Source of the DNA: Arenimonas sp.
GTDB taxonomy: Bacteria > Pseudomonadota > Gammaproteobacteria > Xanthomonadales > Xanthomonadaceae
NCBI GenBank assembly: GCA_043789195.1
Contig: JAYWIC010000027.1
Location: 2,359-66,358, forward strand
Reading direction: 5' to 3'
DNA length: 64,000 bases
This document shows, piece after piece, positions 12,459 through 18,995 of this stretch. Numbering within the stretch: position 1 is the first letter of the stretch; each line of letters starts with the position of its first letter. Below the pieces are notes generated by a model. The model ran no database searches. It was not told the DNA's origin and saw nothing but the letters and a program-made list of their open reading frames with translations. A program made the translations under genes and the position numbers.

Positions 12459-14327
12459 ATGCCTCGTATTTCCCATCTCGCTCTCGCATGTGGTTTGGCG
12501 CTTAGCGCACAGGCCGCGCAAGCCCAGCAGTTCTCCAACGTTATCGTGATTGGCGACAGCCTCAGTGACGGCGGAAACTACACGACGACACTCGGACCTG
12601 GTTTCGGCAGCTTCACCACCAACCCCGATCCGGTCTTCGTGGAATTGGTCGCACAGAACTACGGCTTCAACCTGACCCCTTCCGGTATCACTAATACTGG
12701 CGGCTGGAACTTTGCTTGGGGCGGCGCGCCAACGGGTGCCACATTTGGTTGTGTACCAGCCGCGTTAACACCCGCTGGCTGTCAAAACGGCACCACCCAA
12801 CTAGCGAACTATTTCGCACGTACTGGCGGCGTGGCAGATCCTAATGCCCTGTATTCCGTTTTTCTGGGTGCTAATAATATTTTCAACGTGCTGGGCGGCG
12901 CTCTACCCGTTCTTCCGCAACCCGCTCCCGTGACAATCGCAAATACCGTTGGTCAAAACATCGGCATTATCAGCGCACTGCAGGCTGCAGGTGCCAACTA
13001 CATCGTGGTCTACAATGTCCCGAATATCGGTGCAACCCCATTCGGCACGAGCCTCGGCGGAGCCGCTGCCGCTCAGGTTACCGGCTTGGTTATTCTTTAC
13101 AACGAAGCGTTCAATAATGCGCTTGGCGGTCTCGGCGACGGCATTATTCCAATCAACACTTTTGGATTAATCAACGAGGTCATAGCAAACCCTGGTTATT
13201 TCGGTTTTAGTAATGTCAGCGGCACCGCTTGCGGTACCTTGTCGGGTTCCGTGAACTGTTTTCCTGCCGGCACGCCCGGTGCCCCGTTTACCTATGCCCC
13301 CGGCGCCAACCAGAGCTTTTTGTTCGCCGATGGCGTTCACCCAACTGGTGCGGGCCATGCACTCCTGGCTCAAGTGGTCGTCGCCACGATTGCTGCTCCC
13401 GGCCAGGTTTCTTTAGCCGGCGAACTACCACTGCAAGTGTATGACGACCATAGCGGTGCCATCCGCCAGGCTATTTTCGATAATAAAGTCGGCGGCATGG
13501 AAGTCGGTGAGTCGCGTGGTTTCTTCAACGCCCAGTTCGGCAGCCAAGACTATGATGCCGGCATCAATGCTCCGGCATTAAGCACCAATAGCAATACTTT
13601 CACCGGTGGCTTTGAATATCGTCACAGTGAGCGTCTCAGCTTCGGCGCCGCTATCAGTTTGGGCGGCTCAAACGGTGATTTCGCTGGCGGCGATATCGAT
13701 GGTCAGGAAGTTTTAGGCTCCCTGTTCGCTACCGCTAATTTCGGCAATGGCTACTTCGGTGGTGCTCTGTCCCTCGGCAGCAGCAGTATCGATATCAACC
13801 GCGCAATCGTGCTTGGTCCTTCCGTACGAATCGAAGAAGGCAATGCCAGCGCTTCGCACAAGGCTTTTGAACTCAGCGGCGGCTATCTGTTCGGCGACAC
13901 CGTTCGTCATGGGCCTTTCGCGAGTGCCACCTGGCAACGTGTCGGCATTGAAGCGTTCTCCGAGAATGGCGGCAGCGCCACTTCGATGCGCTTCGAAGAG
14001 TTTGATCGTGACTCACTGATCGGCCGCATCGGCTATCAGTTACAAGGCAAGTTTGGTGATGATCATGCCATTCGCCCAAGCCTGCGAGTCGCCTATGCCT
14101 CGGAAAGCGAAGATCAAGCGACCCGCGTAACCGCTGGTTCCAATTCCATGAATGGCCAATTCACGATGGACGGTTACCTGCCTTCAGATAATTGGATCGA
14201 AGCCGATCTTGGCCTGATGGTTGAATTCACCGACAAAGTAAATGGTTACCTTGGTTATCACGGCCGTTTGAGTGATGACAACCAGGACAACAACAGCTAC
14301 AACCTGGGTGTCAACGTCCAGTTCTAA
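12459..14327 (+). CDS. GDSL lipase/esterase autotransporter (EstA-like)
   Basis: Signal peptide ending AQA, GDSLSD, GANN, DGVHPT, and a C-terminal beta-barrel ending YNLGVNVQF. Confidence 0.92.
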   Translation: MPRISHLALACGLALSAQAAQAQQFSNVIVIGDSLSDGGNYTTTLGPGFGSFTTNPDPVFVELVAQNYGFNLTPSGITNTGGWNFAWGGAPTGATFGCVPAALTPAGCQNGTTQLANYFARTGGVADPNALYSVFLGANNIFNVLGGALPVLPQPAPVTIANTVGQNIGIISALQAAGANYIVVYNVPNIGATPFGTSLGGAAAAQVTGLVILYNEAFNNALGGLGDGIIPINTFGLINEVIANPGYFGFSNVSGTACGTLSGSVNCFPAGTPGAPFTYAPGANQSFLFADGVHPTGAGHALLAQVVVATIAAPGQVSLAGELPLQVYDDHSGAIRQAIFDNKVGGMEVGESRGFFNAQFGSQDYDAGINAPALSTNSNTFTGGFEYRHSERLSFGAAISLGGSNGDFAGGDIDGQEVLGSLFATANFGNGYFGGALSLGSSSIDINRAIVLGPSVRIEEGNASASHKAFELSGGYLFGDTVRHGPFASATWQRVGIEAFSENGGSATSMRFEEFDRDSLIGRIGYQLQGKFGDDHAIRPSLRVAYASESEDQATRVTAGSNSMNGQFTMDGYLPSDNWIEADLGLMVEFTDKVNGYLGYHGRLSDDNQDNNSYNLGVNVQF

Positions 14328-14734: not shown

Positions 14735-14770
14735 TAAAAAAGCCGGGCTTCATTCGAAGCCCGGCTTTTA
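14735..14770 (-). terminator. Intrinsic terminator of the trimeric autotransporter gene
   Basis: AAAAAA-GCCGGGCTTC-ATTC-GAAGCCCGGC-TTTTA: perfect 10-bp stem, 16 nt beyond the stop codon. Confidence 0.85.
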
Positions 14771-14786: not shown

Positions 14787-17111
14787 TTACCAGCCGAACG
14801 AGGCACCCGCACCGGTGGCGGTTTTATCGCCATCAAAAGCGGCACCAAAACTAATCGTGACCCGGTCAGACACCGTTCGCTGGAAGCCAAGCGCGAAAGC
14901 GTTTTGGCCACCGTAATTACCGATACCTACCGCCAGACGATTGTCGCTGGTATTTCCCGATGCCGACGCCGTCATTTGCGCCATCGCTGCCGACATCGCA
15001 CCGACTTGATCCACACGCTTATTCAAGCCTTGTAGTTGATTTCCAAAGCCGTCCAATTGATCCTGAAAGCCATCCAGTGAAATCACGATCGTCGCCACTT
15101 GGGCATCGGTATAGTTATTGGCCGACACCAAAACGGCCGCGTCAGCCGAGTTCATCTGATTCAAGTTCACTGCATCGGTGCCCTGGGTAGCAGCAGCCAC
15201 ATTGGTAATCTGACGCTCGGCACCCACGGCACCGACAGACACGGTGTTGTCGCGAGCACCGGTCGTTGAGCCGGCTCCGATGGCAGCACTGTTGTTGGAC
15301 GAAGCCATTGCTCCGGCACCGACTGCCGTACTACTGGTGCCGGTTGCTTGCGCGCCGGTACCGATAGCAGTGGTGTTGGTGTTGCCAGCAAGACTGTTGG
15401 CACCGGTGGCTGTTGCGCCATCAAACGTCGCCTGCGCATACGCGCCGGTGGCCGTGCTGTTAACACCGCTGGCAACGCTGTAGGCACCCAATGCCGAGGT
15501 ATTGGTATTGGTTGCCTGAGCATAGGCACCGAGTGCACTGCTATAAGTGGCATTGGCAGTACTCCAATTACCTATCGCAGTACTGTTATTGCCGCTGGCC
15601 GTACTGTACGCACCTACGGCACTCGATCTGTCCGTGGCGTAACTTGCCGCGCCGATGGCGCTGGAGTAATTGTTCGCATAACTCCCAATACCGTTCGCAA
15701 CCGATGCATTGTTGGCATAGCTGTAGGCGCCTGTTGCCGTGGAGTAATTGGTGGCCGAGCTATAAAAACCGTTGGTGACCGAGATATTGTCCGCATAACT
15801 CAACGCTCCGGTCGCGCTGGAGAGCTGGTTGGCATAACTGCCGACTCCGTTTGCAGTGGAACCAAAGTTAGCCTGACTGTAGGTGCCGATTGCGTTTGAA
15901 TAGTTGCTTGCACTGCTGTTGCTGCCAATTGCATTCGAGTTGCTTGTTGCCGTGCTATAGGCGCCTATGGCATTAGAGTTATTTAACGCGTAGCTGTTGT
16001 ATCCACTTGCAGTGGAAAGGTTTCCGGCGCTGCTGCCGTTCCCTGTCGCATTCGAATAATTGGTTGCTGTGCTGTACGCACCAACCGCGTTCGACAGGTT
16101 GTTGGAGTAGCTGTCATAACCATTCGCAGTCGAGAGGTTATTGGCAAAGCTGCTGAAACCATTTGCAACCGATGCATTGGAGGCAAGGCTATTCGCACCA
16201 TTGGCTACGGACGAATTTATGGCATCACTGTTTGCGCCGATTGCGTTCGAAAAGCCATAAGCACTGCTATTGATGCCGATCGCATTGGAACCTGTATTTG
16301 CATAGCTGCCCGATCCATTTGCGACAGAACCAAAAACCGCATAACTGCCCGCACCTGTAGCGCTGGAATAGAACGCAGCACCACTGTTTGCGCCTACTGC
16401 CGTCGAGTTGACAACGGCTGAGCTATTATCGCCGAATGCGCTCGAATTAGTATCAGCAAAACTATTATTTCCAGTGGCCACCGAGTTGTTGTTGGCATAA
16501 CTGTTGTAACCGGTCGCATTTGAGCCGTTGTTGGCATAGCTGCCATTGCCGGTGGCATTCGAATAATTAATCGCCGTGCTGTAAGTGCCGCTGGCATTCG
16601 AATTGTTGTTGGCATAACTGCCGATACCGGTAGCGCTGGAGTAATTTGCTGCCGTGCTATTGACGCCAGTTGCCGTCGAGCTGTAGCTGGCAAAACTTCC
16701 AGCACCATTGGCCACCGAGCTATAGAGCGCAAAACTGTTATTACCGGTGGCATTGGAGCCGAATCCGGCAAAGCTGTTTTCGCCCATGGCTACCGAACCG
16801 GAATAAGCCAAACTGTTGCGACCCGTGGCCGTCGAGTTCCCCGAAGCATCGCTTTGATAACCAATCGCGGTCGAATCACCGGTGGCACTGCTGTAGGCGC
16901 CGATCGCTGTGCTGTCGTTGCCGCTGGCATTGGCATTGAGGCCACACGCCAGTGAATAAGTGCCGGTGGAAACTGCCCCGCCATTGCCGCCGCCGGTTAG
17001 CTCGCAGGTATCGCCCGCCAACGCCAGCTGCGCCGACAAACCCATCAGGATTGCCGCGGCCAATTGCTGACGAATGCCCGCGCGGCGGGCATTACATTTT
17101 GTACGTTTCAT
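14787..17111 (-). CDS. YadA-like trimeric autotransporter adhesin (774 aa)
   Basis: Signal peptide ending ALA, long SxAxGxxSxA head repeat array, neck/stalk motif TVSVG...ERQITNVAAA..GTDAVNLNQ, and anchor ending GAGASFGW. Confidence 0.93.
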   Translation of the reverse strand: MKRTKCNARRAGIRQQLAAAILMGLSAQLALAGDTCELTGGGNGGAVSTGTYSLACGLNANASGNDSTAIGAYSSATGDSTAIGYQSDASGNSTATGRNSLAYSGSVAMGENSFAGFGSNATGNNSFALYSSVANGAGSFASYSSTATGVNSTAANYSSATGIGSYANNNSNASGTYSTAINYSNATGNGSYANNGSNATGYNSYANNNSVATGNNSFADTNSSAFGDNSSAVVNSTAVGANSGAAFYSSATGAGSYAVFGSVANGSGSYANTGSNAIGINSSAYGFSNAIGANSDAINSSVANGANSLASNASVANGFSSFANNLSTANGYDSYSNNLSNAVGAYSTATNYSNATGNGSSAGNLSTASGYNSYALNNSNAIGAYSTATSNSNAIGSNSSASNYSNAIGTYSQANFGSTANGVGSYANQLSSATGALSYADNISVTNGFYSSATNYSTATGAYSYANNASVANGIGSYANNYSSAIGAASYATDRSSAVGAYSTASGNNSTAIGNWSTANATYSSALGAYAQATNTNTSALGAYSVASGVNSTATGAYAQATFDGATATGANSLAGNTNTTAIGTGAQATGTSSTAVGAGAMASSNNSAAIGAGSTTGARDNTVSVGAVGAERQITNVAAATQGTDAVNLNQMNSADAAVLVSANNYTDAQVATIVISLDGFQDQLDGFGNQLQGLNKRVDQVGAMSAAMAQMTASASGNTSDNRLAVGIGNYGGQNAFALGFQRTVSDRVTISFGAAFDGDKTATGAGASFGW

Positions 17112-17414: not shown

Positions 17415-18995
17415 GTGGATATCACCCTCTGGCAACAAGCCAACGAACAATTCAATGCCAAACAATTCGAAGCGGCGAAGGCAAGTTGCGAGCAACTGTT
17501 GTTGCAGGAGCCCGAACAGGCCATGGTCTATTGCCTGTTGTCATCGTGTTACCAGAATCTTCGACGTCCCCGGCTGGCGACCTTCAATGCCTTCCAGGCC
17601 TGCAAACGTGCTGCCGGTTTGCCGGCTCGCGATATTCTGGCGATCAGCAATGCCTGCCTGATGGTCGGCGAAACGTTTCTTGGTCATAGCGTCTTGGCCA
17701 ATATCGATATCAACCTTCCGGCCAATCGCGATGTGCTGCTCGATGTCGGACGGCAATACAGTGCCCTGGAAGACCAACCGATGGCGCTGCGATTCGTGCA
17801 ACGGGCCCATGCCGAAGGCACCAATGGCTGGTTCGCCAACCATATTCTGAGCATCATCCTGAGCTTTACCGGCCCGGTCGAAAACGCGATTTCTGCCAGC
17901 GAGTCGTCCATTTCAAAAAACCGCATGCACGGCCATGCCCACTGGATGCGGGCGCAGTTCGGAAGCAAGGAAGGCAATGCACTTCGCGTGGCGCGCATGC
18001 GCGAAGTATTGACGCAACCGAATCTCACGCTGGATGACAAAACCTACCTGCATTACGGCATCTTCAAGGAACTCGATGCGATCAATGACACCGGTGGTGC
18101 GTGGGAAGCCTTGTGCGAAGGCATGAAACATCGTCATTCCGCGCTGCAATTTGGCATCGAGCGGGAAAACCTGTGTTTCGATAATCTGATCAAGGCGACC
18201 AGCGAACATTTTCTCGAAGTACCGACCAAAGTGCCGCAGGAAGTCACGCCGATTTTCGTGGTCGGCATGCCGCGCACCGGCACGACCTTGTTGGAACGCA
18301 TCATCGGAAATCATCCGCAAATTACCGCCTGCGGTGAATTGACCGATTTCAAGATGCAGTTGCAGTGGGCCGCCGATAAGCCCTTGCCGGTACAGATTCA
18401 TCCTGAATTTGGCGAACTGATTTCAAAAATCGATTTTCATCTGGTCGGCAACCGCTATCTGGAAAAAACCCGCCGCCTGATCGAAGGCCGCAAATTCTAT
18501 AGCGATAAAATGCCGCTCAATTATCTGTATGCCGGTCTGATATTAAAGGCGATTCCGCACGCGAAGATCATCCATCTGCGCCGGCATCCGATGGATGCCT
18601 GTTTTTCAAACCTGAAAGAACTGTTCGCCCACCATCATTACGCCTACAGCTACGACATGCTGGAGTGTGCCAATCACTACCGCAATTATTCGCGCCTGAT
18701 GAAACATTGGCACAGCATTGCACCGGGCCGCATTATCGATGTGCATTACGAACATCTGGTCACGCAACCCGAAGTCGAAGCCAGTCGCGTGCAGGAATTT
18801 CTCGGCTTGCCGGAAGTCGAAGGTGTCACCGACATTCTCGCCAATAAACGCATCACCACCACCGCCAGTACGCTGCAATTGCGCCAACCGATCCATACGA
18901 AAAACATGGGCGGTTGGAAGCGTTACGAAACCCAGCTTGAACCGATGCGGTTGGCGATGCTTGATGTGATCGAGGAATACGAAAAATTATTGTGA
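17415..18995 (+). CDS. TPR-containing sulfotransferase (Sulfotransfer_3-like)
   Basis: N-terminal helical TPR-like repeats, 5'-PSB loop IFVVGMPRTGTTLLERI, DKMPLN, IIHLRRHPMDACFS and VHYEHLV. GTG start. Confidence 0.88.
   Translation: MDITLWQQANEQFNAKQFEAAKASCEQLLLQEPEQAMVYCLLSSCYQNLRRPRLATFNAFQACKRAAGLPARDILAISNACLMVGETFLGHSVLANIDINLPANRDVLLDVGRQYSALEDQPMALRFVQRAHAEGTNGWFANHILSIILSFTGPVENAISASESSISKNRMHGHAHWMRAQFGSKEGNALRVARMREVLTQPNLTLDDKTYLHYGIFKELDAINDTGGAWEALCEGMKHRHSALQFGIERENLCFDNLIKATSEHFLEVPTKVPQEVTPIFVVGMPRTGTTLLERIIGNHPQITACGELTDFKMQLQWAADKPLPVQIHPEFGELISKIDFHLVGNRYLEKTRRLIEGRKFYSDKMPLNYLYAGLILKAIPHAKIIHLRRHPMDACFSNLKELFAHHHYAYSYDMLECANHYRNYSRLMKHWHSIAPGRIIDVHYEHLVTQPEVEASRVQEFLGLPEVEGVTDILANKRITTTASTLQLRQPIHTKNMGGWKRYETQLEPMRLAMLDVIEEYEKLL

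Follow-up and report, generated by a model that had tools for sequence, protein, structure and literature searches.

The layers that make up the heads of YadA-type trimeric autotransporter adhesins (TAAs) have a canonical length of 14 residues, those of UspA1 have 15, and insertions and deletions fall in exactly the return loop that leads from the outer to the next inner strand (PMC9543794). The C-terminal head of BpaC from Burkholderia pseudomallei (7o23) is an ungapped beta-roll of 42 layers, each rising 4.8 Å, with a hydrophilic trimer core made up by Thr at position 5 and Thr, Asn, Ser or Gly at position 7 (PMC9543794). Its layers are strictly of 14 residues, follow a three-layer GDN/GEN/GSN super-repeat and are encoded by very similar DNA tandem repeats (PMC9543794). 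AtaA from Acinetobacter sp. Tol 5 (3wp8) is the TAA of an environmental non-pathogen and sticks non-specifically to abiotic surfaces (PMC3498257, PMC4910087). On a 13-residue TAA head repeat, the literature within our coverage contained nothing relevant; many subscription papers lie outside that coverage and the absence is not proof.

Here we analyze an adhesin gene in a stretch of 64,000 nucleotides (the window) from contig JAYWIC010000027.1 of Arenimonas sp., a freshwater bacterium. The preliminary description of this gene had pointed to 33 uninterrupted 13-residue head repeats. Taken jointly, the evidence makes it quite probable that the gene encodes a TAA with a YadA-type roll of about 43 layers, that its 13-residue repeats are layers shortened in a loop and derived from a founder unit, and that the head would act as a sticky rod.

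Results

Domain layout of the Arenimonas adhesin

The gene lies on the reverse strand at positions 14787 to 17111 and, according to the list of open reading frames, is complete, encoding 774 residues and closing with a stop codon at 14787-14789. Positional orthologs in Arenimonas metagenome-assembled genomes (MAGs) cover residues 1-774. Residues 1-32 (17016..17111, reverse strand), MKRTKCNARRAGIRQQLAAAILMGLSAQLALA followed by GD, were read by eye as a predicted Sec signal peptide with a basic n-region, a hydrophobic core and A-L-A preceding the cut; Pfam returned no PF13018 match that would mark an extended ESPR-type signal peptide. An N-terminal cap carrying C36 and C56, together with a first layer of 14 residues (53-66), is encoded at 16914..17015 on the same strand. 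Both cysteines are kept, and cap and first layer are conserved in the orthologs L011 and L007. The best YadA_head stretch that Pfam finds in the full-length protein spans residues 49-74. The 33 layers of 13 residues (67-495; 15627..16913, reverse strand) come next, recognized by their period and invariant columns, followed by nine canonical 14-residue YadA-head layers (496-621; 15249..15626, reverse strand).

The neck (NTVSVG...ERQITNVAAAT.GTDAVN) and a short coiled-coil stalk occupy residues 622-723 (14943..15248, reverse strand) and are nearly invariant across orthologs, and the neck motif aligns with the sequences of the BpaC and 3s6l structures. A YadA-type beta-barrel membrane anchor (PF03895) ending in ...GAGASFGW forms residues 724-774 (14790..14942, reverse strand). 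Against Pfam, the full-length protein scored 42.6 bits for YadA_head and 44 bits for YadA_anchor, both exceeding the cut-off. With the C-terminal fragment, YadA_head reached 58.8 bits over six stretches, YadA_stalk (PF05662) 31.5 bits with a cut-off of 28.4, and the PF03895 anchor 44-46 bits with a cut-off of 22.7; a profile search of the genome contigs also matched the anchor here. The arrangement that identifies a TAA, a PF05662 neck/stalk between the head and a PF03895 anchor, is thus what Pfam returns. Among PDB sequences, the 14-residue part matched BpaC 7o23 (1.4e-31), 3s6l (Hep_Hag family) and YadA 1p9h, the last of which aligns with residues 498-655, and AtaA was a weak match (1.1e-07). 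Because head, stalk and anchor all lie above cut-off and are joined by the matches to BpaC, 3s6l and YadA, the encoded protein is, as judged from sequence, a trimeric autotransporter adhesin of type Vc secretion belonging to an Arenimonas species. A terminator scan also found, 18 nt downstream of the stop codon, a palindromic GC-rich hairpin of 14 pairs, 8 of them G-C, with A- and T-run flanks (14738..14769), which likely serves the adhesin gene and the convergent gene for a lipase autotransporter as a shared bidirectional terminator.

An exact array of 33 units

The array was found to be as regular as first proposed. Residues 67-495 divide into 33 units of S-x-A-x-G-x-x-S-x-A-x-x-x with zero indels, in which S1, G5 and S8 are present in 33/33 units and A3 and A10 in 32/33. 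The autocorrelation proposed as a check gave an identity of 0.53 at lag 13, as compared with a maximum of 0.21 in 500 shuffles. The values at lags 26 and 39 were 0.50 and 0.48, and a super-period of 26 or 39 residues was not seen. The units satisfy the YadA-head pattern for the inner strand, alternating small and large residues up to an invariant Gly and then S-x-A, and depart from the 14-residue layer in keeping a period of exactly 13 throughout all 33 layers. From residue 496 the period switches to 14, as had been described, but nine such units rather than eight were counted up to residue 621, the ninth running into the neck NTVSVG; the single 14-residue layer at 53-66 stands ahead of the array. 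The composition also agreed with the first reading. The residue before Gly is Thr in 11 units, Asn in 8 and Ser in 2, as against Ile in 8, Val in 2, and Met and Phe in one each, and the array is rich in Asn, Ser and Tyr (S92, A80, N70, G53, T34, Y34), and just 11 of its 429 residues are charged.

At the DNA level the units are diverged. Their pairwise identity averages 53% and peaks at 77%, and Tandem Repeats Finder reported a single 2-copy match only. The sequence comes from a MAG fragmented into 234 contigs, which raises the question of whether so long and perfect an array was produced by misassembly of repetitive DNA. With units only 53% identical and long exact repeats absent, an assembler had nothing to collapse or expand. 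Moreover, in the contig L003, which was assembled independently and is collinear at 96% DNA identity, the last 150 array residues recur without an indel, and the same 13-residue unit type occurs in orthologs of ten other MAGs. An artefact is therefore extremely unlikely and was rejected.

The serine codons carry a further record of the array. In the 13-residue units of all orthologs, S1 is encoded by TCN (about 95%) and S8 by AGY, whereas S1 of the 14-residue units is mostly AGY. This difference in codon family suggests that the 13-residue units descend from one founder. Together with the divergence of the DNA units, it supports the earlier view of an old, selected array with no recent slippage. 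In the alignment of the window protein with L011 and L007, the gaps are mostly multiples of 13, which points to gain and loss of whole units.

The 13-residue unit as a probable beta-roll layer

How does a unit of 13 residues relate to the canonical layer of 14? A profile of the 13-residue block matched BpaC 7o23 at E=8e-12, with a one-residue insertion per repeat in BpaC that always comes after the outer-strand Ala and before the next Ser. When the units were aligned by MAFFT with the orthologous 14-residue units, the gap appeared at the same site. Across 193 units of 13 residues and 238 of 14 from the orthologs, position 12 is Gly in 66% of the longer units and, correspondingly, Asn in 36% of the shorter ones. 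AlphaFold2 (AF2) models, run as monomers on shallow alignments (9-11 rows) and to be read as prediction only, gave a single-chain solenoid in which each repeat contributes an inner and an outer beta-strand; DSSP placed the strands at positions 2-4 and 9-11 of each unit. The pLDDT of the block model was 85 (90-98 over the first 170 residues) and stayed at 92-98 unbroken across the junction between 13- and 14-residue units, and it fell below 50 in the neck and stalk, as expected of a part that depends on the trimer.

A different fold for the block, such as another trimeric beta-solenoid or an interdigitated fibre like those of phage tails, would fit the failure of several searches. With residues 67-495 alone, Pfam YadA_head (PF05658) gave no match at E<=1 and phmmer found no PDB chain at E<=10. 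A Foldseek search of the PDB recovered no significant match, and thus no TAA head, from the 13-residue model, and one of BFVD gave weak matches only, to predicted solenoids among uncharacterised phage proteins, giant-virus 'collagen-like' proteins and one 'LbR_YadA-like' phage protein. In addition, 13-residue repeats of the S-x-A-x-G type occur in phage-like proteins in which an autotransporter anchor was undetected. However, Foldseek also failed with a control of nine 14-residue units that match BpaC at 1e-31 by sequence; the method is insensitive here and nothing was inferred from it. The regular profile alignment to BpaC, gapped once in each layer, the presence of each of the five interior residues of the canonical motif in at least 32 of 33 units, and the continuous AF2 confidence over the junction all speak against a separate fold. 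So do the interleaved 13- and 14-residue blocks within single ortholog heads, which two separate folds would hardly accommodate. We regard another fold as very improbable.

The profile alignment, the predicted strands and their confidence, and the ortholog mosaics together indicate that the 13-residue units are homologous to YadA-type layers, with the outer loop of each layer one residue short. The description of the protein as a YadA-like adhesin is upheld for the array as well, the units behaving like canonical beta-roll layers minus one residue.

Orthologs and the rarity of the period

The syntenic orthologs combine the two unit lengths in different orders. L007 has 25 units of 13 residues, 2 of 14 and 13 of 13; L004 has 9 of 13 and then about 36 of 14; L013 has 10 of 13, 10 of 14, 15 of 13 and about 40 of 14. 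Judging from these mosaics, layers of both lengths would be structurally compatible in one head.

The variation among orthologs also bears on what the block does. Between orthologous loci the adhesin is only about 50-68% identical, as against 83-96% for the genes around it, and its unit number and block order differ. Within the units conservation is limited to the columns that face the interior, and every exposed column varies. The block may accordingly be mainly a variable shaft or spacer whose length and surface change fast under diversifying pressure, which phages or grazers could exert if the fibre serves as their receptor; specific binding, if any, would then lie elsewhere, for example in the N-terminal cap. 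Yet the bias to Tyr, Asn and Ser and the near absence of charge hold in all units, which suggests that the composition of the surface has itself been selected. We give the spacer explanation a modest chance, well short of even; it is compatible with the sticky-rod explanation rather than exclusive of it.

Next to the adhesin gene, a divergent gene for a TPR-sulfotransferase is present in every Arenimonas orthologous locus checked, and its close orthologs were found only in the four genomes that carry the adhesin. The two may be functionally coupled through Tyr sulfation, but their co-occurrence is explained by shared ancestry, since all four genomes belong to a single close subclade and the gene order is lost in more distant ones.

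Long runs of period 13 are rare. In 120 diverse TAAs, a sample dominated by Burkholderiales and Xanthomonadales, 2456 steps of 14 residues were counted as compared with 113 steps of 13, which formed runs of 4 at the most. The 13-residue block was matched in 3 of 401 genomes of the order, all in the same ortholog group. The preliminary description had named two findings that would together refute it, commonness of such periods among annotated YadA_head arrays and a match of the model to the canonical head geometry; the first of these is contradicted by this rarity.

A search of a representative library with the 13-residue block returned 49 matches. A few other metagenomic TAAs (P0001-P0012, P0034, P0049) have 9-14 consecutive 13-residue units followed by 14-residue units and a neck; their arrays are shorter than that of Arenimonas and have another consensus, for example AMSxGxAxGxxST in P0049. 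Phage-like proteins with SHAEG or SFAQG repeats (among them P0039, P0047 = phrog_25468, and P0026) resemble the array in having 13-residue S-x-A-x-G...A units, but an anchor was unmatched in the checks run. These other carriers, both the metagenomic TAAs and the phage-like proteins, are all uncharacterised proteins. Several library matches were rejected as homologs because they are unrelated repeats of period 13 that share periodic composition only, such as SYAVGDDSVPHDS in P0013. Lysostaphin, whose N-terminal repeats came up in the PDB profile search, was discarded as a similar chance match.

Core and surface of the array

The polar core proposed for the array is only semi-polar. In 14 of 33 layers neither core position is hydrophobic, as had been suggested; one layer has hydrophobic residues at both and the rest at one. 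The proposed regular ladders of Asn and Tyr did not hold up. At x9 the commonest residue, Tyr, reaches 36% and recurs over at most 3 successive layers; at x12 the commonest, Asn, reaches 52% and recurs over at most 7, the longest run in any variable column.

Beta-solenoids are a frequent scaffold for ice binding. Could a tighter roll with regular Asn/Tyr ladders dock on ice, a mineral face, crystalline polysaccharide or some other ordered lattice? The nearest copies come from MAGs of glacier-fed streams (record titles GL26_DN, GFS_11667, GFS_13036 and GL122_UP), and the surface is rich in Tyr, Asn, Thr and Ser and nearly chargeless. Against this, the irregularity of the exposed columns leaves binding to ice or another ordered surface unsupported. 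The flat regular Thr/Asn/Ser ladder of ice-binding solenoids is missing, and Pfam gave neither a carbohydrate-binding family nor a known ice-binding one such as DUF3494. Orthologs also occur in MAGs whose titles carry no glacial hint (such as MFD02832, USDV, LC038 and H1-B1), and there 14-residue units take the place of most 13-residue ones. Docking on a lattice is very unlikely. The same low probability applies to the stronger proposal that the 13-residue layer makes a distinct, tighter beta-roll with another twist and cross-section, whose uncharged faces rich in Tyr and Asn expanded in cold-stream Arenimonas for an ordered substrate; if true, it would amount to a new class of lattice-binding adhesin head. 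For a special function of the 13-residue head there is no evidence yet.

Discussion

We propose that the head is a single long YadA-type beta-roll of about 43 layers, one of 14 residues, 33 of 13 and nine of 14, which would be roughly 20 nm long at the rise per layer of BpaC. Each 13-residue unit would be a normal layer in which S-x-A-x-G forms the inner strand and S-x-A the outer strand, with small residues filling the interior of the roll, and the return loop towards the following layer's inner strand would be one residue shorter than usual. In terms of the canonical 7+7 unit (SxAxGxx SxAxGxx), the change would be to 7+6, the second Gly having become mostly Asn and one loop residue having been lost. 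The shortened type presumably arose from one founder unit inside this adhesin lineage and then multiplied by duplication and loss of whole units of 39 nt, and the copies would have diverged under selection that fixed no more than the five interior positions. Layers of the two lengths would stack in blocks within one rod, with canonical 14-residue layers always last ahead of the neck. From family and composition, the head may be a long, almost uncharged sticky rod rich in Tyr, Asn and Ser that would provide low-specificity, multivalent attachment or cell-cell aggregation in stream and sediment biofilms, and gain and loss of units would tune its length and surface.

A head built mostly of 33 consecutive layers of 13 residues is a rare structural variant of a well-known adhesin family and apparently undescribed. 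A natural ungapped array of this length would widen the known geometric range of the YadA-type fold, and the natural mosaics would offer a ready system for studying the effects of layer length on twist, stability and trimer packing. Standard domain models are blind to the 13-residue block and leave 55% of the protein unannotated, so such heads are probably under-counted in environmental genomes. The serine codon family provides a simple tracer for the origin and spread of repeat classes. Biologically the variant matters only modestly unless specific binding can be demonstrated.

Among the described systems, AtaA is the most plausible functional analogue. AtaA has 3630 residues and many domain types, whereas the Arenimonas protein is a minimal head-neck-anchor TAA whose adhesion is inferred. 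With YadA and its left-handed parallel beta-roll head (Ylhead, 1p9h, PF05658), it shares the family and the order of signal peptide, beta-roll head, neck, coiled-coil stalk and anchor, as well as the logic of the layer: small and large residues alternate along the inner strand up to an invariant Gly, and the outer strand is S-x-A. Unlike YadA, 33 of its roughly 43 layers have 13 residues and escape Pfam, and its core positions are mostly Thr, Asn or Ser instead of Val or Ile. UspA1 from Moraxella catarrhalis (3PR7) has no sequence similarity to the 13-residue block in the phmmer search of the PDB and is a precedent for a whole head that departs from period 14 through a change in the loop region (PMC9543794); its layers are longer, with 15 residues and an extra conserved Gly, and those of Arenimonas are shorter. 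BpaC is the best PDB match both for the 14-residue part and for the 13-residue profile. In contrast to BpaC, the Arenimonas array lacks a super-period, its units are diverged in DNA, and its core is mixed rather than fully polar. The hydrophilic core already known in BpaC (PMC9543794) gives the semi-polar core of the Arenimonas head a precedent.

Domain layout and the 13-residue array

The adhesin is the product of a 774-aa ORF in the ORF list (14787-17111, minus strand). Its sequence reads as a Sec-type signal peptide (residues 1-32), a cap with Cys plus one 14-residue layer (residues 33-66), 33 layers of 13 residues (residues 67-495; 15627-16913) and nine layers of 14 residues (residues 496-621), which the preliminary description had counted as eight. 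After residue 621 come the neck (NTVSVG...ERQITNVAAAT.GTDAVN), a short stalk and an anchor ending in GAGASFGW. In Pfam, YadA_head and YadA_anchor both exceeded their cut-offs, and YadA_stalk was also found once the C-terminal fragment was scanned alone; NCBIfam gave only partial, sub-threshold likeness to named adhesins of the trimeric autotransporter type (TAAs), for example YadA, BimA, Ata and EmaA. Among PDB sequences the protein best matches the heads of Burkholderia pseudomallei BpaC (7o23, 1.4e-31), 3s6l (Hep_Hag family) and YadA (1p9h), with all three alignments confined to residues about 496-660. In the N-terminal cap, C36 and C56 (DTCELTG...YSLACG; 16944-17006, minus strand) are kept in the related loci L011 and L007 and may be joined by a disulfide, stapling the roll's cap. 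A palindromic hairpin with a perfect 14-bp stem and AAAA/TTTT flanks (14738-14769), 18 nt beyond the adhesin stop, is by its sequence likely a bidirectional intrinsic terminator common to the convergent adhesin and lipase genes. No Rfam families were found in the adhesin region.

Divided at every 13th position, residues 67-495 fall into 33 units with zero indels, exactly as first described, with S1, G5 and S8 invariant and A3 and A10 each present in 32 of the 33 (consensus S-x-A-x-G-x-x-S-x-A-x-x-x). Autocorrelation bore out the period: identity peaks at 0.53 at lag 13 against a shuffle maximum of 0.21, and no super-period of 26 or 39 residues was seen in the block. The block consists largely of Ser (21%), Ala (19%), Asn (16%), Gly (12%) and Tyr (8%), and only 11 of its 429 residues are charged. 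Since the 39-nt DNA units share a mean identity of only 53% and Tandem Repeats Finder detected essentially nothing in the array DNA, the array is old and held by protein-level selection, as had been proposed.

Structure of the 13-residue layer

The period itself is a confirmed observation, and the preliminary interpretation is partly supported. The head is best read as a YadA-type one with layers one residue shorter. A profile built from the alignment of 13-mer blocks matches the BpaC crystal-structure sequence (8e-12), and in each repeat of that alignment BpaC carries a one-residue insertion at the same site, after the outer-strand Ala-x-x and before the following Ser. MAFFT sets an identical gap when 13-mers are aligned with orthologous 14-mers. 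The insertion lies exactly where rare indels occur in solved heads, between layer position 14 and position 1 of the next layer (PMC9543794). Column profiles of 238 14-mers describe a 7+7 unit whose positions 5 and 12 (66%) are Gly; those of 193 13-mers describe a 7+6 unit in which Asn mostly stands at position 12 (36%) and the loop has lost a residue. AF2, run as a monomer with the ortholog alignment, predicted a regular solenoid for the 13-mer block, its strands lying at unit positions 2-4 and 9-11 (mean pLDDT 85; 90-98 for the first 170 residues), in agreement with the daTAA description of the Ylhead repeat as one inner and one outer strand (PMC2373917). A second model, of seven 13-mers, nine 14-mers and the neck, kept pLDDT 92-98 right across the junction, with the trimer-dependent neck and stalk below 50. 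Foldseek returned no significant match for either AF2 model, including the second, whose canonical layers made it the control. A head of this kind is moderately interesting for structural biology and TAA annotation.

Rarity of 13-residue runs

The 13-mer block alone gave nothing with Pfam YadA_head at E<=1, and phmmer found no PDB chain at E<=10. To avoid period bias, 120 diverse TAAs were fetched with the C-terminal portion of the query (14-mers, neck and anchor). In them 14-residue steps numbered 2456 and 13-residue steps 113; nearly all of the latter stood alone, the longest run being 4. The period did not prove common, which the preliminary description had named as grounds against its reading. 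The literature gives the head layer as canonically 14 residues, or 15 in UspA1 (PMC9543794), and a 13-residue TAA head repeat was not mentioned in the literature searched. Within the same order, only 3 of 401 genomes (99 genera) matched the block, all in the adhesin's ortholog group. Among 1.84 billion representative proteins there were 49 matches, counts that are lower bounds because the Arenimonas orthologs are absent from that set. True TAAs with 13-runs among them are a group of P0003 (P0001-like) and P0034, in which about 9 13-residue units precede 14-mers, and P0049, which bears an ESPR and has about 11-14 units whose consensus is unlike that of Arenimonas. Uncommon as it is, the array is not unique, with 13-runs in at least three TAA lineages.

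The other matches are phage-like proteins with SHAEG/SFAQG-type 13-mers or unrelated 13-period repeats. Long 13-residue S-x-A-x-G...A arrays occur in phage-like metagenomic proteins of the SHAEG type (P0019, P0039 and P0047, which match phrog_25468, P0047 also having a tail-protein N-terminus) and the SFAQG type (P0026, P0033 and P0052). No autotransporter anchor was detected in these proteins; their arrays suggest that 13-residue YadA-like rolls may be commoner in phage fibres than in TAAs. The 13-residue AEVETSKAPVENT repeats of prelysostaphin (PDB 6rk4; P0020), found by the 13-mer profile, were set aside as a periodicity artefact, not homology.

Orthologous loci and origin of the 13-mers

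Scanning one genome per species yielded 15 loci. L003 is a partial copy, 96% identical, in a glacier-fed-stream MAG; full-length relatives (48-68% identity) come from ten Arenimonas-type MAGs, and more distant TAAs from Lysobacter and Dyella. The MAG holding L003 (JAYVAQ010000429.1) is labelled Rhodanobacteraceae and is placed by the genome search in another family than the window's genome; the contig may be mis-binned, or the taxonomy may differ between sources. The Arenimonas loci are positional orthologs, as the order hrpB, TPR-sulfotransferase, adhesin, GDSL-lipase autotransporter, mnmG is kept and the flanking genes, named by Pfam, are 83-96% identical.

Parsed by Gly-to-Gly spacing, the Arenimonas heads are mosaics of 13- and 14-blocks: 9x13 then about 36x14 in L004; 25x13, 2x14, 13x13 in L007; 14x13, 3x14, 10x13, then 14s in L011; and 10x13, 10x14, 15x13, about 40x14 in L013. 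Such interleaving implies that both layer types stack in one rod. In every mosaic 14-mers precede the neck, the Lysobacter and Dyella heads are essentially all 14, and of the 13-runs seen, the longest without a break is that of the window protein. The protein's ends are collinear with L011 and L007, and most gaps in the middle measure a multiple of 13, a pattern in the alignment that indicates whole-unit gain and loss.

Codons were compared in eight Arenimonas-type proteins, seven of them orthologs of the window protein. Throughout the set, 13-mers encode Ser1 by TCN about 95% of the time and Ser8 by AGY (32/33 and 33/33 in the window array), and each protein has a single AGY codon as its exception at S1; the 14-mers mostly use AGY for Ser1. 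A switch between TCN and AGY takes two substitutions through a non-Ser intermediate. This barrier and the codon-family split argue that the 13-mers are one lineage from a single founder unit. Repeated independent deletion from 14-mers was rejected, as it runs against the serine codon partition. Serine codon family by repeat position thus makes it possible to trace lineages of repeat units.

Core, surface and possible function

In BpaC numbering (Gly as position 8), x2 and x4 of the 13-mer are trimer-core positions 5 and 7. They hold N11, T9, V8, S5 and T11, I8, N8, S2, V2, M1, F1, respectively. Of the 33 layers, 14 have only non-hydrophobic residues there, one has a hydrophobic residue at both positions and the remainder have a single one, so that the core, proposed earlier to be polar, is better called semi-polar. 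A hydrophilic core has already been described in BpaC (PMC9543794), and that of Arenimonas is similar but less extreme.

Outward, x9 is rich in Tyr/Phe (aromatic in 17/33) and x11-x13 in Asn, which fits a generally sticky, uncharged surface. The regular Asn/Tyr ladders that had been envisaged were not borne out: the columns are irregular, with identical runs of at most 3 layers (Tyr at x9) and 7 layers (Asn at x12), which argues against lattice matching of the antifreeze-solenoid type. Binding of ice or mineral by the head would accord with the glacier-fed streams from which several adhesin-bearing MAGs came, but other orthologs are from MAGs whose titles give no sign of glacial sampling, and we give it a low probability.

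Pfam annotation of the neighbouring genes held no hint of a specific ligand. A classical (type Va) autotransporter, whose passenger is an EstA-like GDSL lipase, is encoded convergently with the adhesin (12459-14327, plus strand) and is 62-80% identical across the orthologous loci. Divergent from the Tyr-rich adhesin lies a TPR and Sulfotransfer_3 protein (17415-18995, plus strand), which adjoins it in every Arenimonas orthologous locus checked. Orthologs of this protein at >=85% identity occur only in the four adhesin-carrying genomes, a co-occurrence explained by these carriers being one close subclade, and modification of the adhesin by Tyr sulfation is neither supported nor excluded.

The rod, of about 43 layers, would be roughly 20 nm long if each layer adds 4.8 A, and gain and loss of units would adjust this length. 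By analogy with the environmental TAA AtaA (PMC3498257), the Arenimonas adhesin would serve life in biofilms as a fibre for non-specific adhesion or autoaggregation.
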